Assembly: GCA_018711135.1 (NCBI GenBank)
Contig: DVIS01000019.1
Span: 2,533-66,532, forward strand
Length of the DNA stretch: 64,000 nucleotides
Direction of reading: 5' to 3'
DNA from: Candidatus Onthousia faecavium
GTDB lineage: Bacteria; Bacillota_I; Bacilli_A; RF39; UBA660
Part shown: one piece after another, positions 12,655 through 57,818 of the stretch
How positions within the stretch are numbered: the first letter of the stretch is position 1
Layout: every line of letters starts with the position of its first letter
Position numbers and translations under genes: made by a program
The notes under the pieces: generated by a model
Database searches by the model: none
Told to the model about the DNA's origin: nothing
The model's input: the letters and a program-made list of their open reading frames with translations, nothing else

Positions 12655-14493
12655 TTAACTTAAAGTAAGACTAAACGGATTTTCTTTAGTTCCATCACCA
12701 CTTGTTATTGTAACATCTGCTAATAAATATAAGGCCGGTCTTACTATAGGGATTCCCCTAATTTGTCCTACAATATCTCGGTATGTATCTGTTGTTAAGC
12801 CATTCGTAGCAGCTCCTGCTACACGCATATATTCTCTTTGTTGATATTTAGTTAATAACCAGTAGACTTCACTAAGATCTCCTGAAAATTGTTCACCTAG
12901 TCTTAATAAACCAACTTTAGGTGTTCTTGCTTGTCTTAAAGAAATAGCATCAAGATAACTACCACCATCTGTTACAACGGTACTAATATCCCAGGTACCA
13001 TTTGCAATCATGGATATACTTTCAGCGCTTAAATAGCCACCAGCAGGATCTATATAATCACCGTTTAAAAATTGGGCAATCGTCGATGAAGAGGTATATG
13101 TATTATCATCACCAAACACACTCTCTAAAAGTTCCCCTGTATTGGCATCCCTTAAAACATCAGCACTAGCTATTTTAATCCTACCATCTGAAGCTATACT
13201 AACAATACGATAAAGATTATTTTCACCTAAACCAAAATTAATATATTCTCCACTATATCTTGTATTTAATAAGGTTCCTGAAAGTGCAGTATCATTATCG
13301 CCTGCTAAGCGGTAGGGATCGCTTTCGGTGCCACTTCCACCTACAATTTCTAAATCACCATAGAAATTTACTGCTGGCCATAAAGAGATAGAGTTTATTT
13401 GCGAATATGATACTAACTCTGATAAAGAATTAAATCCCCAAAGACTATTTCCACCATTGGTATTTAAAGTAGCAAAACTTTCGCCAGATAATGGAGTTAA
13501 AAAGGTATTACCAACGTCATCCTTTGTCATATTATATTCATAGATATTTAATAAACCTACTGCATGGGTTACCAAAGTTGTTTCGGGTAAAGTAGCTGAG
13601 GTATCGGTAACAGCACTAGCGTTCCAACTACTATCCATTTTAATAAATTTTTCTTTGTCTCTTAGATTACCAAGAAAGCCATCAGTCGTAATATCATTAA
13701 GCCATTCTTCTGCATGTGAACCAACAAAGCTTGTATTAGTATTAGTTCCATAAGGTATCTCTGTTATATCAGTAGCAGTTACAGCTTTCACAGTATTGTC
13801 ACTATTAATAGAAACGGCATGCCATAATTTACCACTATACCAAATATAATTGTTCGGAGCTTCTCCTGTTATAAATCTCTGGTCTTTATCACTTGTAGTG
13901 ATATTATTTGAACTATCTGCAAGGAGGACACTAGCTAAATCAGTAGCAGTTACTAATTCTTCAAATAAATAGCCATTACTTGGTAAGCTTAAGTCATTAT
14001 AATCAAGGCCTACATTAACTCCTAAAGATAGATCAAGTTCAGTTGCACCATTATTAATAATTCGGATTATATAAGTCTTACTTTCTCCTGGTGCTAAATT
14101 TACACCTGTAGCAGGTGGTGGTGTGTCGACACTTCCTTCATTATTTCCAACAATATAACCAACAGTTACGTTACTAGGAAATTCATCAAAGTGGTAAAAA
14201 TTAAATCTAGCATCTATACTATTGGGATTTGTTAAAGTAATTGTAATATCAACAGAACTATTTTGATTAGATAATGATATAACCGGTATCTGATTGACAT
14301 CATTATAAGTTTTCTCATCTATCTTTAGTTGATAACTTAAATTTCCTGTTACAATACTTATGGCATTATTCTTTTCTTTATTTACTGTAAAAAGTGCATA
14401 AGAAAAGTAACTCGCTAATAATAAGAAAACAATTAAAGTTGTTAATAAAACATATATTTTCGACACGTTTGTCTCTAATAACAATCTTTTCAT
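12655..14493 (-). CDS. P-family paralog, type B: SipW-type signal/TasA-like N-module plus two DUF6273-like C-terminal repeats
   Basis: The N-terminus MKRLLLETNVSKIYVLL..SYFSYALFTVNKEKNNAISIVTGNLSYQLKID is shared with five other ORFs here. The C-terminal motifs GLLNIYEY, YWLLT and VRPALYL..SGDGTKENPF are shared with 18272-19468 and 34543-36132. It lies 64 nt after the sigma gene and lacks the G9 leader. Confidence 0.7.
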   Translation of the reverse strand: MKRLLLETNVSKIYVLLTTLIVFLLLASYFSYALFTVNKEKNNAISIVTGNLSYQLKIDEKTYNDVNQIPVISLSNQNSSVDITITLTNPNSIDARFNFYHFDEFPSNVTVGYIVGNNEGSVDTPPPATGVNLAPGESKTYIIRIINNGATELDLSLGVNVGLDYNDLSLPSNGYLFEELVTATDLASVLLADSSNNITTSDKDQRFITGEAPNNYIWYSGKLWHAVSINSDNTVKAVTATDITEIPYGTNTNTSFVGSHAEEWLNDITTDGFLGNLRDKEKFIKMDSSWNASAVTDTSATLPETTLVTHAVGLLNIYEYNMTKDDVGNTFLTPLSGESFATLNTNGGNSLWGFNSLSELVSYSQINSISLWPAVNFYGDLEIVGGSGTESDPYRLAGDNDTALSGTLLNTRYSGEYINFGLGENNLYRIVSIASDGRIKIASADVLRDANTGELLESVFGDDNTYTSSSTIAQFLNGDYIDPAGGYLSAESISMIANGTWDISTVVTDGGSYLDAISLRQARTPKVGLLRLGEQFSGDLSEVYWLLTKYQQREYMRVAGAATNGLTTDTYRDIVGQIRGIPIVRPALYLLADVTITSGDGTKENPFSLTLS

Positions 14494-14557: not shown

Positions 14558-15202
14558 TTAAGCTACTTTTTCTTTAATTTTTTGTAATATTTTACTTTCC
14601 TTTCTACTTACTTGGACTTGACTAATACCAAGTAATTCAGCAGTTTCTTTTTGGGTTAGATCTTCATAGTATCTTGATGTTATAAGGCCTTTTTCACTTT
14701 CTTCTAAGGAATTAATAGCTGACTTTAAATCTAATATGCCAACATCATAGCCTTTTTCAATTAAAGCAATTTTATTGTATAAATTTGTATCATTATCCAT
14801 ATTATTATCATCAAGACTACAAGATGATTGACAAGCGATAATAGTACTTGTAATTTTTTCTTCACTAACGCCTAAAATATAACTTAATTCTAGTGGTGTT
14901 GGTTCTCTTCCTAATCGTTGGACTAAGTCTTCTCTAGTGTCATTAATTTCTTTATTTAATTTGTAAGTGTCATTACTTATTTTTACCTCTTTAGAATTAT
15001 TTAGGGTCTTTAGAACTTCTCCTTTAATATAAAAGTAAGCATAGTCTAAAAAGTTACTTTCTCTTGTTTGATCATACTTTTTAAAAGCTATAATTAGGCC
15101 CATCATACCGGCTTGGTATAAATCATCATAATCAGTTCTAAAGTTATACTTATTTACTACATGTCTTACTAAGTTTTCATATGCTAATACATCTTCTGTC
15201 AT
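14558..15202 (-). CDS. Sigma-70 family group-3 sigma factor, SigF/SigG/SigB-like
   Basis: Region 2 (DLYQAGMMGLIIAFKKYD), region 3 (KISNDTYKLNKEI..LGREPT) and region 4 (LTQKETAELLGISQVQVSRKESKILQKIK) align by eye with B. subtilis SigF. I chose the start at ATG 15202; the track start 15214 sits in the SD. Confidence 0.75.
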   Translation of the reverse strand: MTEDVLAYENLVRHVVNKYNFRTDYDDLYQAGMMGLIIAFKKYDQTRESNFLDYAYFYIKGEVLKTLNNSKEVKISNDTYKLNKEINDTREDLVQRLGREPTPLELSYILGVSEEKITSTIIACQSSCSLDDNNMDNDTNLYNKIALIEKGYDVGILDLKSAINSLEESEKGLITSRYYEDLTQKETAELLGISQVQVSRKESKILQKIKEKVA

Positions 15203-15286
15203 TTTAATCCCCATCCTTTAGGTTCATGATAATGGTTAACTTACGGAAAAACAATGGTTTCGACATAGTTAGAAAAATGTTTTAAC

Positions 15287-16415: not shown

Positions 16416-16766
16416 CTAATCTTTTGCTTTAAAAATAACCGTAAAAACAAAAGTAAATATTATGGCAGCAGTAATACCAGTAGCGGTTAAATCAAACATT
16501 CCTAGTAAAAGACCAATTAGACCATTGTTTTCTGCTGCTAGTAAGGCACCATGGATTAATGAGTGACCAAATGAGGTAATTGGTAAAAGAGCTCCTCCCC
16601 CACATTTAGCAATAAAAAAGTCATAAATACCAAAAGTATCAAGTAAAGCACCAACACTTACAAAAATAGAGGTAATATGACCAGGGGTAAGTTTAGTGTT
16701 ATCTAATATTAGTTCCGCAATTAGACAGACGATACCACAGAAAAGAAATGAGTTAAGAAAGTACAT
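16416..16766 (-). CDS. spoVAEB: Stage V sporulation protein AE (SpoVAEB-type)
   Basis: 116-aa polytopic protein with the GALLPITSFGHSL motif, immediately after spoVAD. Confidence 0.8.
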   Translation of the reverse strand: MYFLNSFLFCGIVCLIAELILDNTKLTPGHITSIFVSVGALLDTFGIYDFFIAKCGGGALLPITSFGHSLIHGALLAAENNGLIGLLLGMFDLTATGITAAIIFTFVFTVIFKAKD

Positions 16767-17762
16767 TTAAATCGCCTCCAAACAGATAAGATTTGCTATT
16801 GATAAGATATTTTCTTTTTGATAAACCGTCATTGGAGAAAATAAAGCGCCTGTTGCTATTAAAATTACCTTTTTATATTTATTTTCTTTTAAGCCTTTAA
16901 TAACTGTACTATAATTTACTAAAGCAGAACAAACAGGACCACTACCACCTGCTAAAACCTCTTTTTGTCTTTTTAAATCATAAAGCATTACTCCACAGTC
17001 ATTATAATTAGCTTTAATATCAATTCCATAATTATCAAGCATTAAATCTTTTAATATTTCTTTGCCATATAGTCCTAAATCACCAGTTAAAATTAAATCA
17101 TAATCACTTGGTTTGGTTTTCGTTTCTTTTAAATAACGATAGAGAGTATCCATAGCAGCGGGAGCCATAACTGCTCCCATATTAAAGACATCTTTTTGCT
17201 TATAATCGATAATAGTACCAATAAGACCATTTACAACTTTTATTTTACTGGGTTTATTAGTAAGTAAAACACTAGCAGCACCAGTTGAGGTAAAAGTAGC
17301 TGTCATGGGTTTGGGAGAACCATATTCAGTAGGATTACGAAATTGTTTTTCACTTGTCATATTATGAGATGAGCAAGCACTAATAATGTTATTGGCTTTA
17401 CCGGCATCAATGAAAGTAGCAGCAATTAACATTCCTTCAATACTAGTAGCACAAGCAGTATAAATTCCTAAAAAAGGAGTATTAAGTTCTAAAGATCCAT
17501 AGGTGGAAGCAGTGATTTGATTGAGTAAGTCACCAGCGATGATTAAGTCAATCTCTTCTTTAGGCATATTAGCTTTGCGTAAGAGTATTTTTAGGCTATC
17601 GCTTAGTAGCTTAGTCTCCGCTTTTTCAAAACTTTTAGCTCCACAATAAAGATCTTTAGTGTAACGCTTGTCAAAGTTATGTTTTAAAGGTCCTTTGGCT
17701 TCATAGGGACCTGCCACAGTACTTGTTTCAGTTAAGTAAACATTACGAAAAGTTAAAATCAT
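16767..17762 (-). CDS. spoVAD: Stage V sporulation protein AD (thiolase-fold)
   Basis: ~330-aa thiolase-like sequence (GIYTACATS, GGSGPVCSA) between spoVAC and spoVAE. The start is ATG 17762 with GGGAGGT 6 nt upstream. Confidence 0.85.
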   Translation of the reverse strand: MILTFRNVYLTETSTVAGPYEAKGPLKHNFDKRYTKDLYCGAKSFEKAETKLLSDSLKILLRKANMPKEEIDLIIAGDLLNQITASTYGSLELNTPFLGIYTACATSIEGMLIAATFIDAGKANNIISACSSHNMTSEKQFRNPTEYGSPKPMTATFTSTGAASVLLTNKPSKIKVVNGLIGTIIDYKQKDVFNMGAVMAPAAMDTLYRYLKETKTKPSDYDLILTGDLGLYGKEILKDLMLDNYGIDIKANYNDCGVMLYDLKRQKEVLAGGSGPVCSALVNYSTVIKGLKENKYKKVILIATGALFSPMTVYQKENILSIANLICLEAI

Positions 17763-18199
17763 GATAAAACCTCCCATAAATAACGAATTAGACCAAAAAA
17801 CCAGGCTGAAACAACCCCATAAAAGATAACAGAACCTGAGAGTTTAAAAACATTGCTACCAATACCATAAATAGGTCCTTCATGCTTATAATCCAAGACA
17901 GCACTAGTCATGGAATGGGCAAAACCAGTAATAGGAATTAAAAGACCAGCTTTTGCTTTAGCTACTAGTTTGTCAAAGAAACCAAGAGCTGTAAATAAGG
18001 AAGCTAGAAAGATAAAGGTTATGATCATATAAGTCGAAGCATCATTTCTAGATAAAGAAAAAAAGTAAATATAAAGCCGGATTAATATTTCTCCTAGTAG
18101 ACCAATAGAGCCACCAACTAAAAAAGCAGTTAGAGCATATTTTAATTTTGGTTCTTTTGGCTTATTTTTGTTAACTATTGTTTCATATTTTTTATTCAT
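17759..18199 (-). CDS. spoVAC: Stage V sporulation protein AC
   Basis: 146-aa polytopic membrane protein with GLLIPITGFAHSM and GPIYGIGSNVFKL motifs, in the spoVAC-AD-AE gene order. Confidence 0.85.
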   Translation of the reverse strand: MNKKYETIVNKNKPKEPKLKYALTAFLVGGSIGLLGEILIRLYIYFFSLSRNDASTYMIITFIFLASLFTALGFFDKLVAKAKAGLLIPITGFAHSMTSAVLDYKHEGPIYGIGSNVFKLSGSVIFYGVVSAWFFGLIRYLWEVLS

Positions 18200-25928: not shown

Positions 25929-26839
<911 letters not shown>

Positions 26840-34542: not shown

Positions 34543-36132
34543 TTACTGTACTGTGTATGGATTATCCATAGTTCCAGAACCACTTAAGATAACATCACTA
34601 TTTAAATTGATAACGGGCCTTATTCCATCTGAATTCAATTGGGTACTAAAAATGAAAATAATATGCAAGGCATCTAATTGATCCCAAATAGTAGGAACAT
34701 TATTACGGAAATCCGCAGGAGTCATGGTATAGTACCTGAAATTATCAACACTAAGATAACTATCACTTGTAACCTCCAAATTCTCTCCTGAAAAGATTAA
34801 CTCATCGACTGTTATTAAACCAGCTTTAAGTTTATAACTACCACCATAACTTTCATTAGTATTAGGGCATATTAAAGTTGGAGAAATGTCTTCACCCTTC
34901 CCATCAACAAGTTGATGAATTCTATCATAACTACTAAAGCCCATATAATCTCTATTTATACCATAGTCTTTAACAGCAGTATAACCACTACTATCACTAC
35001 AAAATCTTCCTTCTATTACTTTATCATCATAAGCATTATTTTTTCCTAAAGTATTGTTATACCAGGTATCGACTTCTTTTTTAATAAAACTATCTACACC
35101 ATTATCATAGGTATATCCTGTATATTTTGGATCATCATAGATTAAGTTATAAGGAGCAAATCCTATTATATATGAGGTAGCTAAGTCATTGTCATTAATA
35201 CTTGTATTTGTCCCATTATAAATTAATCTTAGGCTACCATCACCATTTACTCTTACTATTTTCAAGTACATATCATCCCCACTAGATGCTAACTTTATTT
35301 TATTACTTTCAGTACAATTAGAATTATATTCTTGACAACTCTCTAAACTTTGAAAATAACTATCATAATAATTATAGACATAATAATCTTCATCATATTT
35401 ACCAAATTTAATATTATTGTTGTCTATACTACCACGGAAATAATAACTTACTCCATCTTCATCGATGGCTTTGTATACTCCAGGTGTTATATAATTTGGA
35501 TCAACGGTATCTGCGCCAAATTTCATACCGTTACTTGCATAATTAAACATATTATCTTTTGATACTTGAACTTTATTATCCACTAATATCTTATCTAAAG
35601 TACTAGCATTATACTTTACAAATAAATGGCCATTACTAGGTAGATTTAAATCATTATAATCTAGTCCCACACCTACTCCTAAAGGAATAGTAATTTCATT
35701 GTCACTAGTATTTCTTACTTTTATCTTATAAGTATTGCTACTACTAATTGTCCCTTGTTTTTCTAGATTAATTCCTGGTTCTTCTGGAGGAGTATTAAAA
35801 TTAGCTTCTTCAAGGTAACCAAGTTCAATCTCAGAAGATAAATCACCTATATAATAAAAGTTAAATCTTGCTATTCTACTATTAGGATTAGATAATGTAA
35901 TAATAAATTCTTTAATACTATTGGCAGGAACTACAAGACTTTCAGTACTAACATTATCTACTTTTAAGTCATAACTTAGTGTTCCTGTGACAATACTTAT
36001 GGCATTACTCTTTTCTTTTGTTACTGTAAACATTGCATAAGAAAAGTAACTTGTTAATAGTAGCAAAGTTATTAATATTACACTTATTATATATATTTTT
36101 GATATCTTAGTATTCAATAATATTCTTTTCAT
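34543..36132 (-). CDS. P-family paralog, type B: TasA-like N-module plus a DUF6273-like C-module
   Basis: The N-terminal 170 aa are nearly identical to 50248-52023 (MKRILLNTKISKIYIISVILITLLLLTSYFSYAMFTVTKEK.NAISIVTGTLSYDLKVD). The C-terminus (LKIVRVNGDGSLRLIY, AGLITVDEL, IRPVINLNSDVILSGSGTMDNPY) resembles 12655-14493 and 18272-19468. Confidence 0.75.
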   Translation of the reverse strand: MKRILLNTKISKIYIISVILITLLLLTSYFSYAMFTVTKEKSNAISIVTGTLSYDLKVDNVSTESLVVPANSIKEFIITLSNPNSRIARFNFYYIGDLSSEIELGYLEEANFNTPPEEPGINLEKQGTISSSNTYKIKVRNTSDNEITIPLGVGVGLDYNDLNLPSNGHLFVKYNASTLDKILVDNKVQVSKDNMFNYASNGMKFGADTVDPNYITPGVYKAIDEDGVSYYFRGSIDNNNIKFGKYDEDYYVYNYYDSYFQSLESCQEYNSNCTESNKIKLASSGDDMYLKIVRVNGDGSLRLIYNGTNTSINDNDLATSYIIGFAPYNLIYDDPKYTGYTYDNGVDSFIKKEVDTWYNNTLGKNNAYDDKVIEGRFCSDSSGYTAVKDYGINRDYMGFSSYDRIHQLVDGKGEDISPTLICPNTNESYGGSYKLKAGLITVDELIFSGENLEVTSDSYLSVDNFRYYTMTPADFRNNVPTIWDQLDALHIIFIFSTQLNSDGIRPVINLNSDVILSGSGTMDNPYTVQ

Positions 36133-36354
36133 CTTCTACTCCTTATCAATTATCTTGACATTAATTATAGTTTACCCTATTTCTTTAATTTTATGTGCTG
36201 GCTATATAACCAATTTACACCATGAAAAAGAACAGAATACTCCTATCCTGTCCTTATTGTATGATTAAAGAAGGTACTTAAGCTTCTAAAGTACCCCCCC
36301 CCAGGTAACTTGTTGTAAACCGGATGTTCTTGTCATTTCATACCTTCTTTCTAT
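36133..36354 (-). promoter_or_regulatory. P-family 5' leader, copy 1 (core 36225-36354 with G9 at 36294-36302, plus accessory module 36133-36224)
   Basis: The conserved block is shared with four other loci. It has a terminator-like hairpin AAGGACAGGATAGGAGTATTCTGTTCTT followed by T5. The accessory module carries a near-palindrome CTGGCTATATAACCAA and a TATAAT box. Confidence 0.7.
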
Positions 36355-36402: not shown

Positions 36403-38172
36403 TTAATTACCGGCATTTAATACAAGACGAAAAGAACCATTATAACGACCTGAACTTATATAATTGTAATAATGAAAAATTCCAGCATCAGTTTTGTCAC
36501 CATAATAACCACCTCTAATAATCCAAGGGTATGCTGAATTGACCATTGTCCATGAATCGTTATACCAATTGTTAGTTTCACTTAAAGCATGGGATAAACA
36601 AATTTTACCAGAACATGCGGTATTAGTATTGTCGCTTGTATATTGATCATAATATTTAGAGTCTATTATAATATTTTCCATACCAATTCCGTTATAATTT
36701 GCCATTATAAATTCCCAGGCTCCACCTGACATATCATAGATTCCATAAATATTTCCAGTTGTTGAAGAGCCAGTACCATTAATATCTATATCATAAGTAT
36801 AATGACAACCATAATCAGTATTACCATTGCTTGGTTCTCCATAACTGCATCCAGTTATATATTGATCACTTTTATTTTGATAAATCTCTTTATTAGCATT
36901 ACTAAAATCGGTATTACCTAGTTTTCCATATCGACTTTGGGATAAGTAGGCTACTGTTGCCCATTCACTATTCTTCATCATATGTGTATCTACACTACTA
37001 CTAAATCCATATCTATTTCCTGCATCATTCATTTTTATTGATACATTAAAAGCATTACTTATACTTATATTTCTCCAACTTATCACATTAGGTTTAATTA
37101 TTGGATCTAAAGTAGTTGTATCTCCTCCTCCATATTCTGCATCAGGATTACTACTACTTGTTTCAAATTTTCCTACCCAGATTCCTGATAGTTCTTCATC
37201 ACCAAAAGTAAAAGCATCTGGGGTATACCAACTATTACTATTCATTCCTTCATTTATATTATATCTAGCAGTTCCCTTTTCTTTGACATTTACTCTAACA
37301 AATTTTATATCTATCTCTCCTGGTAAAGCTTGAGTTGGAGAATTACTCTCACATGCTACTTGTCTACCATAGTAATTTGTTCCATCAATACTTGCTATAG
37401 AATAACTATATCGTGGTATCCATACCCACATAGTCTCTATATCATCCATATTTATTACAGTTCCTACACTAGCACTCTTATAGCTCTCTCTTGTACTACT
37501 GCTGACAGTTACGGCATTGGCCCATTTCTGTTCACTATAGTTATACCAATCATTATCAGTGTTATTTGTATTGGCTTTTACCCAATTGTTATCTACATAT
37601 TTCACAGCTATCATATTAGTATCTAATTCTGGAGTATTTACATTTTGGCCATATTCTAAAAATAAATGTTCATCATTTTCTAAACTTAAATCATTATAAT
37701 CTAGCCCTACACTTACTCCTAAAGTTATTGTCTGTTCCTTATTGCTATCATTATATACTATAATTTTATAAGTTTCACTTGATCCTATTGTTCCTGTTGC
37801 TTCTAAATTTATTCCAGTTGCTTCTGGTGGTTTAATACTTTCACAATCTATAATATAACCAGCTTCTATACTTTGATCTAAATTACCTTTATAATATAAG
37901 TTAAATCTAGCAATTCTATTATTAGGATTAGATAAAGAAACAAGAAATATTTTTTCTTCTTTTGGACCAACTACTAATTTATCTGTACTTACTCCATCTA
38001 CTTTTAAGTCATAACTTAGTGTTCCTGTGACAATACTTATCGCATTACTCTTTTCCTTACTAACAGTAAACATCGCATAAGAAAAGTAGCTTGTTAATAG
38101 CAGTAAAGTAATCAATATTACGCTTATCATATATATTTTTGATATTTTAGTATTTAATAATATTCTCTTCAT
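36403..38172 (-). CDS. P-family paralog, type A: TasA-like N-module plus an FGE-sulfatase/C-type-lectin-like C-module
   Basis: The C-module motifs GIWVGKFETSSS, ISWRNISISNAF, MKNSEWATVAYLSQSRYGK, YGIYDMSGGAWEF, RGGYY and SFRLVL parallel the SUMF1/FGE-sulfatase domain (GxYDMxGNVWEW, RGGSW, GFR). Confidence 0.75.
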   Translation of the reverse strand: MKRILLNTKISKIYMISVILITLLLLTSYFSYAMFTVSKEKSNAISIVTGTLSYDLKVDGVSTDKLVVGPKEEKIFLVSLSNPNNRIARFNLYYKGNLDQSIEAGYIIDCESIKPPEATGINLEATGTIGSSETYKIIVYNDSNKEQTITLGVSVGLDYNDLSLENDEHLFLEYGQNVNTPELDTNMIAVKYVDNNWVKANTNNTDNDWYNYSEQKWANAVTVSSSTRESYKSASVGTVINMDDIETMWVWIPRYSYSIASIDGTNYYGRQVACESNSPTQALPGEIDIKFVRVNVKEKGTARYNINEGMNSNSWYTPDAFTFGDEELSGIWVGKFETSSSNPDAEYGGGDTTTLDPIIKPNVISWRNISISNAFNVSIKMNDAGNRYGFSSSVDTHMMKNSEWATVAYLSQSRYGKLGNTDFSNANKEIYQNKSDQYITGCSYGEPSNGNTDYGCHYTYDIDINGTGSSTTGNIYGIYDMSGGAWEFIMANYNGIGMENIIIDSKYYDQYTSDNTNTACSGKICLSHALSETNNWYNDSWTMVNSAYPWIIRGGYYGDKTDAGIFHYYNYISSGRYNGSFRLVLNAGN

Positions 38173-38328
38173 CTCTTACTCCCTTCATTCAACCACAAAA
38201 AAAGAACAGAATACTCCTATCCTGTCCTTATTATATGATCAAAGAAGGTACTTAAGCTTCTAAAGTACCCCCCCCCAGGTAACTTGTTGTAAACGGATGG
38301 CTGTTCTCATTTTATACCTTCTTTCTAT
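38173..38328 (-). promoter_or_regulatory. P-family 5' leader, copy 2 (core 38197-38328, G9 at 38268-38276)
   Basis: Same conserved block. The terminator-like hairpin is followed by T7, 12 nt before the SD AAGGGAG. Confidence 0.7.
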
Positions 38329-43277: not shown

Positions 43278-45071
43278 TTATGGAGCAATAACTATCCTAG
43301 AAGCACGATCGTGATGGGTATCATCTGTACCTTTATCAGTTGAATACCAAAAGATACCAGGAGTTAATGGTTCGATTGAGCCATCAGGATAATAATAATT
43401 ACTACCACAAATTATCCATGGTATATCAGAATTAACAGTAGCATAAAAATCATTATACCAATGAGCTATTTCTGATAAGTAATATGATTTACACAAACCT
43501 CCATTACAGGCAGTAACAGTATCATCACTAGTATATTTATCATAATATTTGGCATCAGGCATTGAAGAAAAACCACTATTAATGGTAATATCATTATAAT
43601 TTCCCATCATAAATTCATGAGAACATCCTACCATATCATAGATTCCATAAATATTGCCAGTTGTTGAAGCACCTGTTCCATTTATATTTATATCATAAGT
43701 ATATTGACAGCCAAAGTCATATCCGGTACCACCACCAGGAGCCCCCCAACTGCATCCTGTTATATATTGATCACTCTTGTTTTGATATACCTCTTTATTA
43801 GCTCCACTATAATTAGTATTACCAATTTTACCGTATTTAGATTGGGTTAAATAAGTAACAGCTCCCCACTCACTACTTTTCATAGCATGGGTATCTACAT
43901 TACTACTAAATCCATATCTATTTCCTTCATCATTCATTTTAAGACTAATATTAAAAATATTAGCAATACTATTACCACGCCAACTTACAACATTAGGTTT
44001 AATCATAGGATCTAATTCTGTTGTATTGCCTCCTCCATGTTCTAAAGATGGATCACTACTACTTGTCTCAAACTTTCCTACCCAGATTCCGCTTAACTCT
44101 TCATCACCAAAGGTAAAAGCATCTGGAGTATACCAGCTTGTTATTTCTTCTCCTACTTTATATTTAGCACTACATCTATCTTTTTCTCCACTAGCCACAA
44201 ATTTAACATCTATTTCTCCTGGTAATTCTTGAGTTGGAGTTGTTGTTAAAAAATTCCCTTGTTTTCCATAGTAATTAGTTCCATCTTTACTACCGATTGT
44301 ATACGAGTATCTCGGTATCCATACCCACATGGTTTCAATATCATTCATATTTATTATGGTTCCTACACTTGCATTTTTATAACTTTCTCTTGTTGAGCTA
44401 CTTACTGTTACCGCATTAGCCCATTTTTGTTCATTATAGTTATACCAATCATTATTAGCATTACTTATATCTGCTTTTACCCAATTATTGTTTTCATATT
44501 TTACGGCAATCATATTAGTATCTAACTCTGGAGCATTTGGTTCATTTATATATTCTTTAAATAAATGGCCATTACTTGGTAGGCTTAAATCATTATAATC
44601 TAGACCTACACTTACTCCTAACTCTATTACTACCTCATTATGAGAATTATTTTCGACCATTATTTTATATTTATTACTACTACCTATACTTTTACTTGTT
44701 TCTAGATTAACTCCTATTTCTTCTGGTAAAGGATTTGTTTCACAATCTGTGATATAACCAACAGTTACATTATCTGGGATTTCATTTAAGTAGTAAAAGT
44801 TAAATCTTGCTATTCTATTGTTTGGATTACTTAAAGTAACTATAAACTCTATTGAGGTCTCACCAGGAATAGTTAAAGTATTTCCTTCTTTTCTATCTAT
44901 TTCTAATTTATAGTCCAGTGTTCCTGTAACAATACTAATAGCATTATTCTTTTCGTTGGTTACAGTAAACATCGCATAAGAAAAGTAACTTGTTAATAGT
45001 AATAAGGTTATTATAATTACACTTATTATATATATTTTTGATACTTTAGTATTTAATAATAGTCTTTTCAT
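43278..45071 (-). CDS. P-family paralog, type A (597 aa)
   Basis: Same N-module, with FGE-like motifs (GIWVGKFETSSS, MKSSEWGAVTYLTQSKYGK, YGIYDMVGCSHEF). The extreme C-terminus is divergent. Confidence 0.75.
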   Translation of the reverse strand: MKRLLLNTKVSKIYIISVIIITLLLLTSYFSYAMFTVTNEKNNAISIVTGTLDYKLEIDRKEGNTLTIPGETSIEFIVTLSNPNNRIARFNFYYLNEIPDNVTVGYITDCETNPLPEEIGVNLETSKSIGSSNKYKIMVENNSHNEVVIELGVSVGLDYNDLSLPSNGHLFKEYINEPNAPELDTNMIAVKYENNNWVKADISNANNDWYNYNEQKWANAVTVSSSTRESYKNASVGTIINMNDIETMWVWIPRYSYTIGSKDGTNYYGKQGNFLTTTPTQELPGEIDVKFVASGEKDRCSAKYKVGEEITSWYTPDAFTFGDEELSGIWVGKFETSSSDPSLEHGGGNTTELDPMIKPNVVSWRGNSIANIFNISLKMNDEGNRYGFSSNVDTHAMKSSEWGAVTYLTQSKYGKIGNTNYSGANKEVYQNKSDQYITGCSWGAPGGGTGYDFGCQYTYDININGTGASTTGNIYGIYDMVGCSHEFMMGNYNDITINSGFSSMPDAKYYDKYTSDDTVTACNGGLCKSYYLSEIAHWYNDFYATVNSDIPWIICGSNYYYPDGSIEPLTPGIFWYSTDKGTDDTHHDRASRIVIAP

Positions 45072-45228
45072 CTTTTTCTCCTTTCATTTAACCATAAAAA
45101 AGAACAGAATCCTTCTATCCTGTTCTTATTCCATGATTAAAGAAAGTACTTAAGCTTCTAAAGTACCCCCCCCCAGGTAACTATTTGTAAACGGATGCTA
45201 GCTTGCATTTTTCATACCTTCTTTCTAT
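45072..45228 (-). promoter_or_regulatory. P-family 5' leader, copy 3 (core 45096-45228, G9 at 45166-45174)
   Basis: Same conserved block. The hairpin AAGAACAGGATAGAAGGATTCTGTTCTT is followed by T6. Confidence 0.7.
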
Positions 45229-45239
45229 ACTTTAAGTTA

Positions 45240-45269
45240 ATTATACTCTATCTTAGCGTGCTATTTCAA
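45240..45269 (-). promoter_or_regulatory. Sigma-A-type promoter feeding leader copy 3
   Basis: Minus strand TTGAAA (45264-45269), 18 nt, then TATAAT (45240-45245), between the ileS stop and the leader core. Confidence 0.55.
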
Positions 45270-50247: not shown

Positions 50248-52023
50248 TTATTCTATACAAAGAATAGTTCTAAATGAGTTATCTATACGCACGCCACCTA
50301 AACTATATGTAGCACCATAAGAAAACAGACCAGAATCAACTTGATCATAGTAGTATCCACCTCTTACTAACCAGGGATACTCATTATTTATCATATTATT
50401 AATATCTTTATACCATTCTGAAGTTTCTGATAAGGCATGGCTTAAACATTCTTCTCCATTGCATGCTGTTAATATGTTATCTGTTATATATTTATCATAA
50501 TACTTTGACTCGGGAAAAATGGTAAAATCAGCATTACCTAATATATCATTATAATTACCCATAACATATTCCCAGGCTCCTCCACTCATATCATATATTC
50601 CATATATAGTTCCAGTTGTACTTGCTCCTGTACCATTTATATCTATGTCATATGTGTATTGACATCCATAATCGGTATTGCTATTTGATGGCATTCCATA
50701 ACTACACCCAGTTATATACTCTTCACTTTTATTTTGATATATTTCTTTATTAGCATTACTAAAATTTGCATTACCTAACTTTCCATATTTACTTTGGGAT
50801 AGATATGTTACAGCTCCCCACTCACTGTTTTTCATCATATGGGTGTCGATAGTACTACTAAATCCATATCTATTTCCTTCATCATTCATCTTTAAACTTA
50901 CATTAAAGGCATTACTAACATTTATATATCTCCAACTTGTTACGTTTGGTTTTATCATCGGATCTAACTCTGTTGTATTCCCTCCTCCATATTCTAATGA
51001 AGGATTAGAACTACTTGTCTCAAACTTGCCTACCCAGATTCCACTTAGTTCCTTATCTCCGAATGTAAAGGCATCTGGGGTATAATACTCTTTTGCTCCA
51101 GTTGTCGTTATGCATTTTGCATTTCCCCTATCTTTTATTTTATCACTTACAAATCTTATATCTATTTCTCCTGGTAATTCTTTAGTTGGTTCACTTTCTA
51201 AATAACAGCCTTGCTTTCCATAATAATTAGTTCCATCAACGCTTGCAATACTATAACTATATTTTGGTATCCATACCCACATTGTTTCAATATCATTCAT
51301 ATTTACTATGGTTCCTACAGAAGCATTTTTATAATTTTCTCTTGTTGAACTACTTACTGTTACCGCATTAGCCCATTTTTGCTCATTATAGTTATACCAA
51401 TCATTATTAGTGTTACTTGTATCAGCTTTAACCCAGTTGTTATCTACATATTTTATAGCTATCATATTAGTATCTAACTCTGGTGCATTTGGTTCATTTA
51501 CATATTCTTTAAATAAATGTCCATTACTTGGCAAACTTAAATCATTATAATCTAGTCCTACTTGTACCCCTAATTCTATCACTATTTCATTACTAGAATT
51601 ATTTTCTACCATTATTTTATATTTATTACTACTACCTATACTTTTACTTGCTTCTAAGTTTACTCCAGTTTCTTCTGGTAAATTAGTAGTTTCACAATCT
51701 TTTATATAACCAACATTTACCTCTGTTGGTATTTCATTTAAGTAATAAAAATTAAACCTAGCTATTCGATTATTGGGATTTGTTAATGTAATAATAAATT
51801 CTTCAGCACTATTGGCTTTAACAACGAGGTTTTGACTAGAATTGCCATCTACTTTTAAATCATAACTTAATGTTCCTGTTACTATACTTATGGCATTCCT
51901 CTTTTCTTTTGTTACTGTAAACATCGCATAAGAAAAGTAACTTGTTAATAGCAGTAAAGTAATTAATATTACACTTATTATATATATTTTTGATATCTTA
52001 GTATTCAATAATATTTTCTTCAT
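50248..52023 (-). CDS. P-family paralog, type A (591 aa)
   Basis: Same N-module, with FGE-like motifs (GIWVGKFETSSS, MKNSEWGAVTYLSQSKYGK, YGIYDMSGGAWEYVMGNY, RGGYYY, SFRTIL). Confidence 0.75.
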   Translation of the reverse strand: MKKILLNTKISKIYIISVILITLLLLTSYFSYAMFTVTKEKRNAISIVTGTLSYDLKVDGNSSQNLVVKANSAEEFIITLTNPNNRIARFNFYYLNEIPTEVNVGYIKDCETTNLPEETGVNLEASKSIGSSNKYKIMVENNSSNEIVIELGVQVGLDYNDLSLPSNGHLFKEYVNEPNAPELDTNMIAIKYVDNNWVKADTSNTNNDWYNYNEQKWANAVTVSSSTRENYKNASVGTIVNMNDIETMWVWIPKYSYSIASVDGTNYYGKQGCYLESEPTKELPGEIDIRFVSDKIKDRGNAKCITTTGAKEYYTPDAFTFGDKELSGIWVGKFETSSSNPSLEYGGGNTTELDPMIKPNVTSWRYINVSNAFNVSLKMNDEGNRYGFSSTIDTHMMKNSEWGAVTYLSQSKYGKLGNANFSNANKEIYQNKSEEYITGCSYGMPSNSNTDYGCQYTYDIDINGTGASTTGTIYGIYDMSGGAWEYVMGNYNDILGNADFTIFPESKYYDKYITDNILTACNGEECLSHALSETSEWYKDINNMINNEYPWLVRGGYYYDQVDSGLFSYGATYSLGGVRIDNSFRTILCIE

Positions 52024-52179
52024 ATCTTACTCCTTTCATTTAATCATAGAATAAGAACAGAATACACTTATCCTGTCCTTATTCTATGATTAAAGAAAGT
52101 ACTTAAGCTTCTAAAGTACCCCCCCCCAGGTAACTTGTTGTAAACGGGTGGCTGCTCCCATTTTATACCTTCTTTCTAC
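52024..52179 (-). promoter_or_regulatory. P-family 5' leader, copy 4 (core 52045-52179, G9 at 52119-52127)
   Basis: Same conserved block. The U tract after the hairpin is interrupted (CTTATTCTATG). The 5' end of the block (TAGAAAGAAGG) contains the TAG stop of the upstream gene. Confidence 0.7.
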
Positions 52180-55824: not shown

Positions 55825-57597
55825 TTATATAATTAAAGTAAGGCGGAAAGAAGCATCTTTATTTACTGAACCATTACCCGTAGTTTTATAAAAATGAAAT
55901 ATACCTGATGAACTATCTGAATTATAGTAGCTACCATAAGCAACCCAGGGATTATTAACATCGCTCATAACAGCTGAGTCACGATACCATCCTGCAGTTT
56001 CTGATAAACCATATGATAAACATTCTTTACCATTACAAGCAGTAAAAATGTCACTACTTGTATATTTATCATAGTATTTAATATCAGGCATTTCTGTAAA
56101 TCCAGAACTAGCAATTATATCATTATAGTTACCCATCACATATTCCCAAGCTCCTCCACTCATATCATAGATTCCATAAATATTTCCCGTTGTTGAGGCT
56201 CCTGTCCCATTTATATCAATATCATATGTATATTGGCAGCCATAATCAGTATTTCCTTTAGATGGTGCTCCATAACTACATCCTGTTATAATCAAATTGG
56301 ATTTATTTTGGTATATTTCCTTATCTTTTCCTGTGAAATCAACATTTCCTAATTTTCCATATCGACTTTGGGATAGATATGCTACTGCTCCCCATTCACT
56401 ATTCTTCATCATATGTGTATCGATAGTACTACTAAATCCATATCTATTTCCTTCATCATTCATTTTCAAACTGACATTAAAGCCATTACTTATATTTATA
56501 TTTCTCCAACTCGTGACATTTGGTTTTATCATTGTATCTAATTCTGTTGTATTACCTCCTCCATATTCTGCATCAGGATTAGAACTACTTGTTTCAAACT
56601 TTCCAACCCAGATTTCACTTAACTCTTCATCACCAAAGGTAAAAGCGTCTGGAGTATAATACTCTCTTACTCCTGTTGTTGTTACATATTTAGCATTTCC
56701 TCTATCTTTTATTTCTGTACTAACAAATCTTACATCTATTTCTCCTGGTAGTTCTTGAGTTGGTTCACTTTCTAAATAACAACCTTTTCGTCCATAATAA
56801 TTAGTTCCATCTTCACTTGCAATACTATAACTATATCTTGGTATCCATACCCACATAGTTTCTATATCATTCATATTTATTATGGTTCCTACACTTGCAT
56901 TTTTATAACTTTCTCTTGTACTACTACTGACAGTTACAGCATTAGCCCATTTCTGTTCACTATAATCATACCAATCATTATTAGTATTGCTTGTATCTGC
57001 TTTTACCCAATTATTATTTTCTTATTTTACTGCTATCATATTAGTATCTAATTCTGGAGTATTTGGTTCATTTATATATTCTTTAAATAAATGTCCATTA
57101 CTTGGTAAACTTAAATCATTATAATCTAGTCCTACCCCTACTCCTAACTCTATTACTACCTCATTATGAGAATTATTTTCGGCCATTATTTTATATTTAT
57201 TACTACTACCTATACTTTTACTTGTTTCTAGATTAACTCCTATTTCTTCTGGTAACGGATTAGTTTCACAATCTGTGATGTAACCCACAGTTACATTATC
57301 GGGGATTTCATTTAAGTAGTAAAAGTTAAATCTTGTTAAACGATTATTAGGATTTGTTAGAGTAACTATAAACTCTATTGAGGTCTCACCAGGAATAGTT
57401 AAAGTATTTCCTTCTTTTCCATCTATTTCTAATTTATAATCCAGTGTTCCTGTCACAATACTAATCGCATTATTCTTTTCTTTGGTTACAGTAAACATCG
57501 CATAGGAATAATAACTTGCTAATAGTAATATAGTTATTAAAATTACACTTATTATATATATTTTTGATACTTTAGTATTTAATAATATCCGCTTCAT
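55825..57597 (-). pseudogene. P-family paralog, type A, inactivated by a single in-frame TAA (Tyr codon in the paralogs)
   Basis: The two track ORFs (57022-57597 and 55825-56874) are in the same frame (1773 nt in total). Reading through gives ..NMIAVK*ENNNWVKADTSNTNNDWYDY.., where paralogs have ..NMIAVKYENNNWVKAD.. Confidence 0.8.
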
Positions 57598-57818
57598 TTT
57601 TACTCCTTATCAGTTATTTTGACATTAATTATAGTTTACCCTAATTTATTTATTTTATGTGCTGGTTATATAACCAGTTTGCATACTAAAAAAGAACAGA
57701 ATCCTTCTATCCTGTTCTTATTCCACGATTAAAGAAAGTACTTAAGCTTCTAAAGTACCCCCCCCCAGGTAACTTCTTGTAAACGGGTGCTAGTGCTCAT
57801 TTCATACCTTCTTTCTAT
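57598..57818 (-). promoter_or_regulatory. P-family 5' leader, copy 5 (core 57688-57818 with G9 at 57758-57766, plus accessory module 57598-57687)
   Basis: The core matches copy 3 in the terminator hairpin. The accessory module matches copy 1 and contains a perfect 16-nt palindrome, CTGGTTATATAACCAG (57662-57677). Confidence 0.7.

Follow-up and report, generated by a model that had tools for sequence, protein, structure and literature searches.

The DNA considered here is a window of 64,000 nt (64 kb, 29% G+C) from Candidatus Onthousia faecavium (assembly GCA_018711135.1, contig DVIS01000019.1, positions 2,533 to 66,532), and the subject is a block of about 130 nt that occurs five times on its minus strand, each time directly upstream of a paralogous gene coding for a protein of about 590 amino acids (aa). 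A preceding examination of the letters alone, made without database searches (here called the sequence-only reading), had placed the blocks at 36225-36354, 38197-38328, 45096-45228, 52045-52179 and 57688-57818, and alignment together with repeat-family analysis confirmed these positions. The copies are near-identical (~ 90%), and the N-terminal coding parts of the genes that follow them are also highly alike. A core of 36 nt, GTTACCTGGGGGGGGGTACTTTAGAAGCTTAAGTAC, which includes a run of nine G (G9), is exactly repeated in all five blocks, with 0 occurrences expected by chance. The heptamer GGGGGGG has 15 matches in the window, all inside the five block runs, against 0.48 expected. Features of copy 3, in the order of the minus strand, are the following:

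45240-45269, minus strand: predicted promoter-like site TTGAAA-18-TATAAT (consensus scan, 11 of 12 positions match)
45215-45226, minus strand: first Shine-Dalgarno sequence (SD1), AGAAAGAAGGTA, ribosome-binding site of the leader open reading frame (ORF) and 5' strand of the SD1:anti-SD helix
45158-45208, minus strand: leader ORF of 16 codons plus UAG, MQASIRLQIVTWGGVL
45166-45174, minus strand: G9 tract in the leader ORF (codons W-G-G-V), the proposed slipped-strand switch
45146-45165, minus strand: stop-rich spacer with the small hairpin GUACUU..AAGUAC; short-frame stops UAG (+5, G9 frame) and UAA (+13, G10 frame)
45139-45148, minus strand: anti-SD block UACUUUCUUU, complementary to SD1 and to the Shine-Dalgarno sequence of the gene (SD2)
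45094-45127, minus strand: predicted intrinsic terminator; hairpin of 11 bp, AAGAACAGGAU/AUUCUGUUCUU, with a U run behind (terminator scan; -11.4 kcal/mol)
45115-45117, minus strand: UAG at which the long frame (G8 or G11) would end, where the terminator 5' arm meets the loop
45078-45084, minus strand: SD2 of the regulated gene, paired with the anti-SD block in the minimum free energy (MFE) fold of the read-through transcript
43278-45071, minus strand: regulated gene, 597 aa

The other four copies, each delimited from SD1 to the terminator, have the same arrangement:

36225-36352, minus strand: copy 1; G9 at 36294-36302; leader ORF at 36286-36336, MTRTSGLQQVTWGGVL and stop; 66-nt insert between terminator and SD2; gene at 34543-36132
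38197-38326, minus strand: copy 2; G9 at 38268-38276; leader ORF at 38260-38310, MRTAIRLQQVTWGGVL and stop; gene at 36403-38172
52050-52177, minus strand: copy 4; G9 at 52119-52127; leader ORF at 52111-52161, MGAATRLQQVTWGGVL and stop; gene at 50248-52023
57687-57816, minus strand: copy 5; G9 at 57758-57766; leader ORF at 57750-57800, MSTSTRLQEVTWGGVL and stop

To place the block in a wider context, relatives were collected. The regulated protein has thousands of metagenomic homologues, and the named ones belong to Candidatus Onthousia, an uncultured chicken-gut genus assigned to Bacilli incertae sedis. Scanning GTDB species representatives with an alignment of the paralogues and their homologues gave 78 loci from ~ 20 metagenome-assembled genomes (MAGs), and a scan of metagenomes with the leader pattern added 17 further loci. 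An nhmmer search started from the five window copies and iterated once returned 58 hits, 54 with a G run and 46 distinct with enough downstream sequence. Blocks are found in about 20 other MAG species, where they precede proteins 40-70% identical to those of the window and also proteins with a different N-terminal domain. For this reason their conservation is not just a matter of recent duplication, a caveat which the sequence-only reading had raised.

In that reading the block was described as a structured, non-coding attenuator leader. Its place as a 5' leader with a conserved intrinsic terminator directly before the gene stands, and this terminator makes the block an attenuator, but the description as non-coding has to be given up. 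In every window copy, AGAAAGAAGG is followed 5-7 nt later by ATG, which opens an ORF of 16 codons, M-x4-(R/G)LQxVTWGGVL, running through the G run (W-G-G-V) to UAG; the G9 tract makes up codons 12-15. SD1 is invariant in the five copies and near-invariant in relatives. The segment of about 12 variable nucleotides corresponds to codons 2-5, always in frame, and the alternation of invariant, variable and invariant parts, formerly taken for a sensor, resolves into SD and ATG, variable N-terminal codons, and a conserved C-terminal peptide with the G run. Among the 46 distinct copies with enough sequence, 42 have an SD and ATG that open an ORF reaching the G run, and the remaining four are explained by a contig edge, the start search or degeneration. 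Between 13 and about 45 codons long, the ORFs vary on their N-terminal side and share a conserved ending, (R/C)LQxVTW-GG. Some of the longer leader ORFs (L031:1-110, L078:1-110, L039:2628-2725, L027:2648-2727, L081 and L082) contain in-frame repeats of ~ 24 nt (QGKIIRQF or WGKLIRQS), which may represent a second, frame-neutral length polymorphism of the leader peptide.

The leader ORF, with its own SD and start, lies between a promoter-like site and the gene. Sites reported upstream of copies 1-3 (TTGTAA-17-TACTAT, TTGTTA-17-TAATAT and TTGAAA-18-TATAAT) are indeed present. Of the 45 distinct upstream regions in relatives, 24 have TTGnnn-N16-18-TAnnnT at a constant distance, usually in the extended form with TG, and the remaining regions lie directly behind another gene. 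Transcription of the block as the predicted 5' leader of the regulated gene is supported.

The hairpin and U run recognised earlier are recovered by the terminator scan in copies 2 and 3, and all window copies fold at -11 to -13 kcal/mol. Across copies and relatives, 41 distinct versions of the hairpin were obtained, with energies of -8 to -15 kcal/mol and always with a U run behind, as predicted for an intrinsic terminator. In 16 distinct outer stems 99.4% of cells are paired, three pairs are changed on both sides (C:G and U:A exchanged at 8:8; A:U and U:A exchanged; A:U/G:C), the stem score was reached by 0 of 500 shuffles, and slid registers drop to 39-70% paired; these values lean towards the structure, as the stem alignment was built from hairpins folded per sequence (RNAfold) and is fitted to it. 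Copies 2-4 leave no space in which a promoter could lie between the terminator and SD2. Copies 1 and 5 carry an insert of about 66 nt in this place (36146-36224 and 57610-57686, minus strand), with the palindrome CTGGTTATATA(G/A)CCAG and TATAAT. Similar inserts occur in L030 and L084. The insert could be an operator, or a second promoter bypassing the switch.

Since the 5' invariant part is an SD, the distal partner in the proposed 5' helix is an anti-SD. This helix, AGAAAGAAGGUA:UAC(C/U)UUCUUU, is predicted by folding, as is the small hairpin GUACUU..AAGUAC behind the G run. The SD1:anti-SD helix of 8 bp is kept in 25 of 25 sequences and, being invariant, provides no evidence by covariation; RNAalifold applied to a MAFFT alignment of 25 leaders recovered only this helix, and mis-registered the terminator. 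Its duplex energy is between -11 and -18 kcal/mol across copies (-11.3 kcal/mol in copy 3). The anti-SD has a second partner. Together with its 3' flank (UUACUUUCUUUCAUUAUG) it can also base-pair, across the terminator, with the SD2 region (AAUAAUGAAAGGAG), at -14.5 kcal/mol in copy 3, and in the MFE fold of the read-through transcript anti-SD and SD2 form one long stem continuous with the terminator. Mean energies of this pairing are -11.7 kcal/mol for cognate, -10.4 kcal/mol for non-cognate and -6.3 kcal/mol for shuffled combinations (permutation p ~ 0.0015 for cognate against non-cognate). Mutually exclusive helices therefore exist as had been suggested, namely SD1:anti-SD, the small hairpin and anti-SD:SD2. 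No conserved antiterminator was found when leaders were folded without the terminator 3' arm: the 5' arm stays unpaired in three of seven copies (L054, L001 and L051), and elsewhere its partner varies by copy. Given the lack of a conserved antiterminator helix, occlusion by a ribosome would be the available route to antitermination.

The G tract itself varies in length, from G5 to G11 among 42 distinct scored copies, and this variation is seen between copies and between genomes. The most frequent is G9 (24 copies), followed by G10 (10), G8 (4), G6 (2), G11 (1) and G5 (1). Copies within one contig or MAG can differ, as in L006 (G9/G10/G10) and L008 (G9/G9/G6), and in pairs with 75-nt flanks that differ at only 4-7 positions, G counts are unequal in three of eight. 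As GGG accounts for only 6% of Gly codons in the window genes, the homopolymer is maintained at the nucleotide level. In 586 kb, comprising the window and the loci, there are 57 G/C runs of at least 7 nt; 50 are leader tracts and 56 sit in regulatory regions upstream of genes of the regulated family (P family).

Many metagenome contigs start or end inside the leader (L080, L085, L086, L092, L093, L094 and L095), which suggests that the repeated cassette or heterogeneity in tract length breaks assemblies. Relatives in rabbit-gut MAGs, with P proteins about 40% identical, have a different G7-G9 tract, located 14 nt upstream of the -10 box in the arrangement TTTCATAAATC-G(7-9)-TACTTTTAATAAGA-TATAAT-GACAC..GTGTC-ATG. 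Six such sites were recorded (L061:2942-2949, L062:2951-2958, L065:114-121, L073:10-18, L074:116-123 and L074:2966-2972), and the tract looks like a promoter-type slipped-strand switch for the same gene family. Another rabbit MAG (L066) has the leader-ORF type of tract. An isolated G8 run at L014:4489-4496 lies in the context AAAGGGGGGGGACTTTATG, where the tract would itself be the SD of a gene outside the P family.

The consequence of tract length for the reading frame was addressed by simulating, in each copy, tracts of n-1, n and n+1 residues. Between tract and terminator, 41 of 42 distinct copies have exactly one frame without a stop; the exception has two, and no copy lacks such a frame. 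The stop of the open frame lies in the 5' arm or the loop of the terminator, except in three copies, where it lies past the hairpin. Stops of the other two frames come 0-25 nt behind the tract and leave 22-52 nt to the terminator stem. With a change of frame, the leader stop no longer precedes the hairpin by a wide margin but falls within it or past it. In the window, G9 leads to the UAG and G10 would lead to the UAA listed above, and G8 or G11 would read ...YFRSLSTFF(D/N)H..RTG, with the stop in the terminator loop region (GGAUAG; GGAUAA in copy 4).

This regularity is kept in a spacer that differs in sequence and length (18-56 nt from tract to anti-SD) between lineages. Over 37 distinct spacers, the two short frames together have 159 stop triplets, and the long frame is effectively free of them; two nominal long-frame stops both belong to L013, in which the frame anchor is off by one and direct translation gives an open frame. 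With cluster representatives only, the counts are 36 in short frames against 2 in the long one, for which (2/3)^38 = 2e-7. At their present tract lengths, five of the 42 copies are in the long frame (L006@2825, L032, L088, L027 and L013) and 37 in a short one. The long-frame share is below the one-third expected from neutral drift (p = 0.003), as would be expected if most family members are OFF. The key result is this selection, by which one frame is kept open through an otherwise stop-saturated and fast-evolving spacer, and models based on RNA only do not explain it.

The block is a real, conserved and hitherto unannotated regulatory cassette and an attenuator, most likely one that is read by the ribosome and set by slipped-strand variation of the G tract rather than by a ligand. 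More specifically, we favour, with a probability of about 0.68, the interpretation that each block is a phase-variable leader-peptide attenuator, in which slipped-strand changes in G number set the reading frame and by this a heritable on/off state of each gene. Leader RNA would be produced from a sigma-A-type promoter or by read-through from an upstream gene, and the strong SD would drive translation of the short ORF holding the run of about nine G. Slipped-strand mispairing at replication would add or remove G residues and shift the frame downstream of the run. In the OFF state, corresponding to two of the three frames (G9 and G10 in the window), the ribosome would stop about 5-16 nt from the tract and leave. 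The anti-SD could then pair with SD1, the terminator hairpin would form and transcription would end, and any read-through RNA would have SD2 masked by the same anti-SD block. In the ON state, the third frame (G8 or G11 in the window) would be open across the spacer and the anti-SD, with its stop in the terminator 5' arm or loop, or in a few relatives beyond the hairpin. The translating ribosome would occlude the terminator stem and strip the anti-SD from SD2, and the gene would be transcribed and become translatable.

The leader ORF, the polymorphism of tract length between copies, the rule of one open frame, the covarying terminator and the double complementarity of the anti-SD block are read directly from the DNA. 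We infer rapid and reversible slippage at single loci within populations, translation of the leader, and the equivalence of the long frame with ON. All five window genes would, on these terms, be OFF in the assembled consensus.

Several points weigh against this interpretation. All five window copies have G9, and where a locus was recovered again from an independent assembly (L079 for copy 3 and L087 for copy 4), G9 was found both times. Homopolymer lengths can be wrong in assemblies: L029, L051 and L071 derive from Nanopore/metaFlye MAGs, and several metagenome contigs have a coverage of only 1-5x. The copies are also phylogenetically related, and their counts are non-independent. Inserts of 60-110 nt between terminator and gene, in copies 1 and 5 and in some relatives, may contain a promoter of their own. 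Ribosome-mediated antitermination needs a ribosome that keeps pace with RNA polymerase, which is not guaranteed in Bacillota. Finally, CGTTTACAAnnnGTTACCT, coding for (R/C)-L-Q-x-V-T-W, is strongly conserved just before the tract, and the model does not require it. A role of the conserved LQxVTW peptide and its near-invariant nucleotides in arrest or pausing is possible, and would leave the frame rule without explanation.

Among alternatives, the one that survives best, although we consider it unlikely, is recoding, acting instead of mutation or besides it: a prfB-like +1 ribosomal frameshift, or slippage of RNA polymerase on the G run, would produce tunable, non-heritable read-through. The frameshift site of release factor 2 (RF2), AGG GGG UAU CUU UGA, has a geometry that is matched by the G run and CUU-UAG of the window, where copies read GGGGGGGG-GUA-CUU-UAG (GGG GGG GUA CUU UAG), at 45166-45157 on the minus strand in copy 3 and at the equivalent place in the other four; relatives have GGG GGG GCA GUU followed by UAA or UAG. 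A +1 shift from the G9 frame lands exactly in the long frame, G9 is the commonest length, and the UUUA motif behind the run is conserved. A pure recoding site would, however, not tolerate the observed range of tract lengths, with G10 in 10 copies and G8, G6, G11 and G5 in others; the NUU-stop is out of frame in G10 copies, and five copies are already in the long frame at the DNA level. Furthermore, the slippery codon CUU is limited to the window lineage, while GUU or AUU of relatives re-pair poorly at UUU.

A composite of this idea and the attenuator would be a layered switch with at least three states, which we regard as similarly doubtful. In it, G length would define the heritable frame, either ON or one of two distinct OFF frames, a prfB-like +1 shift at NUU-UAR or polymerase slippage would allow G9 copies, which are in the commonest OFF state, to leak tunably into the ON frame, and the anti-SD would lock read-through and initiation. 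The cassette would be portable across dozens of secreted-protein genes, would be replaced by the promoter-type tract in distant relatives, and would generate an Opa-like combinatorial surface repertoire.

It is less probable still that the leader acts through a regulatory nascent peptide, so that (R/C)LQxVTWGG stalls the ribosome on a signal such as secretion stress, an antibiotic or a metabolite and controls the terminator or SD2, with the G run being mere WGG codons. Many arrest peptides have a Trp and exert their effect at a stop codon or close to one, and here the motif is conserved with a single freely varying codon exactly in frame (CAA nnn GTT), in front of genes that are all predicted to encode secreted or anchored proteins. 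Yet the exclusive use of GGG and the polymorphism of run length find no explanation in this way, and neither does the fact that 41 of 42 copies keep a third frame open as far as the terminator. Stalled at the short-frame stop, a ribosome would be more than 20 nt away from the terminator, with no antiterminator to favour. In L032 the peptide motif is lost through an upstream shift of 1 nt, and the nucleotides are kept.

The architecture of a riboswitch or of a factor-dependent attenuator, as put forward in the sequence-only reading, would have alternative helices of a sensor RNA decide on terminator formation. The window copies do fold better than shuffled sequences (z = -2.7 to -6.3), and the mutually exclusive helices described above would suit such a device, but no conserved aptamer-like core and no conserved antiterminator helix is present. 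The would-be sensor is an ORF highly variable in length and sequence, the sole conserved long-range helix is that of SD and anti-SD with its lack of covariation, and the reading-frame signal is not accounted for. We therefore hold this possibility to be very improbable. Its authors had recognised no named RNA family, and Rfam agrees, with no match at the gathering threshold over the whole window and, for copy 3 in permissive (E-value) mode, a best score of 22.7 bits against a cut-off of 64. A T-box leader was likewise rejected, as it had been on motif grounds, by the absence of an RF00230 match at either threshold. A trp/his-type attenuator sensing amino acids was discarded as well: only W-G-G codons are available, there is no conserved 2:3 antiterminator, and the genes code for secreted proteins and not for biosynthetic enzymes. 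Absence of any regulatory function, with duplication or gene conversion of the 5' ends of the family, a fortuitous small ORF and a hairpin that terminates the upstream gene, would fit the high identity of window copies and of the N-terminal coding regions, but hardly deserves credence in view of a block kept across about 20 MAG species while downstream proteins diverge to 40-70% identity, its presence before different N-terminal domains, the compensatory changes in the terminator, and frame-specific stop avoidance, which cannot come from neutral duplication.

All regulated proteins start with a Lys-rich segment, a transmembrane (TM) helix and an SYA(M/A/F/L)F motif, and are for that reason likely secreted or anchored. 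We take this motif to resemble SipW-type signal peptides; NCBIfam gave no match. In the 597-aa protein, the Lys-rich, TM and SYAMF signal-like N-terminus is followed by a beta-rich domain, and the AlphaFold2 model has a mean predicted local distance difference test (pLDDT) score of 42, with confidence only at residues ~ 55-160. Searches in Pfam, NCBIfam and PDB sequences gave no confident family for the regulated proteins. A sub-threshold match to FGE-sulfatase was obtained only for the paralogue at 36403-38172, and the PDB search gave a single match of marginal quality (E = 0.19).

An in-frame TAA at 57022-57024 (minus strand), where the paralogues have Tyr (..IAVK-stop-ENNNWVKAD), divides the gene of copy 5 into two ORFs, 57022-57597 and 55825-56874, through either pseudogene decay or a sequencing error. 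The leader cassette is missing from a sixth paralogue of 612 aa (12655-14493, minus strand), whose C-terminal part differs. This paralogue is located 64 nt downstream of a SigF/SigG-like sigma-factor gene (14558-15214, minus strand). In the same window, 26206-26416 (plus strand) contains a collagen-like repeat with 9-nt periodicity (GxT/GPT triplets), reminiscent of BclA-type exosporium proteins, and SpoVA-like ORFs occur at 16416-17777; based on these two features the organism probably forms spores.

If the favoured model is true, stochastic on/off control of a large family of secreted proteins would be a major feature of Onthousia-like gut commensals. The small ORFs in the leaders are unannotated. 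Presence of a gene in a MAG says nothing on its expression, and the G count would have to be read. The combination of SD, small ORF, simple sequence repeat, stop-rich spacer with one open frame, and terminator can be used as a template in the search for further switches.

Phase variation by slipped-strand mispairing of homopolymers in coding regions or promoters is well established, as in Neisseria pilC and opc, Bordetella fim and the poly-G genes of Campylobacter. The blocks share with these classical switches a poly-G/C tract of 8-11 nt before or inside surface-protein genes, a length that differs between copies, and a predicted OFF state of most members. They differ in that the tract belongs to a leader ORF of its own, outside both the structural gene and the interval of the promoter hexamers, and in that the proposed output is terminator read-through coupled to unmasking of the SD. 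Compared with prfB, the five window copies have an analogous G-rich SD-like element, 3-nt spacer, CUU-U and in-frame stop, and a +1 shift would lead to a longer frame; unlike in prfB, the slippery codon and tract length vary across copies, and the output would be a leader peptide and not a fused protein. In bmrB-bmrCD, vmlR and lmo0919 of Bacillota, the position of the ribosome on a short leader ORF decides the fate of a downstream terminator through antibiotic-induced stalling and alternative hairpins. Here, this position would be set genetically by the frame, and no conserved antiterminator hairpin takes part. A further parallel is Helicobacter pylori tlpB, target of the small RNA RepG, in which a leader G repeat of variable length sets downstream expression post-transcriptionally (PMC8295292); regulation of tlpB is graded and depends on base-pairing with the small RNA, in contrast to a tract within a translated ORF with the reading frame as the proposed readout.

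The closest known system is that of the pil1 and pil3 pilus operons of Streptococcus gallolyticus, whose expression depends on GCAGA repeats that lie within a leader-peptide gene, ahead of a premature terminator (Danne et al. 2014, PLoS Pathog, PMC3894217). Expression is low when the leader stops 28-39 nt or more ahead of the hairpin. With out-of-frame repeat numbers the stop comes to lie in the hairpin or behind it, and expression is high because the ribosome destabilises the terminator, as shown with ATG, stop-codon and terminator-deletion mutants (PMC3894217). Both systems have a promoter, a short leader ORF with a repeat whose unit is not a multiple of three, a premature intrinsic terminator and surface-protein genes, the latter predicted in our case. 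The distance from stop to hairpin in the low-expression state, at least 28 nt in pil1/pil3, compares with 22-52 nt for the short frames of the block. In place of 13-22 GCAGA units there is a homopolymeric run of about nine G, and only one of the two out-of-frame states is long. An anti-SD block able to mask the SD of leader or gene is present here and goes unmentioned for pil1/pil3 in the sections of PMC3894217 consulted. Moreover, the Onthousia block is a multi-copy cassette, with at least five loci per genome in about 20 species of an uncultured Bacilli lineage. The two share no sequence homology and belong together by mechanism, demonstrated by experiment for pil and proposed for the block from sequence. 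At that level, the block has every attribute that would be predicted for a mechanism of the pil1/pil3 type. Our literature search for leader-ORF/terminator phase variation found no further examples beyond S. gallolyticus. Demonstration of such variation coupled to a terminator is known from one streptococcal species, with pentanucleotide repeats. The block is not a categorically new mechanism but a homopolymer cassette version of the pil1/pil3 logic, and its occurrence suggests that the same logic evolved independently, as a compact and portable cassette of ~ 130 nt, in Onthousia-like gut Bacilli represented by MAGs only.

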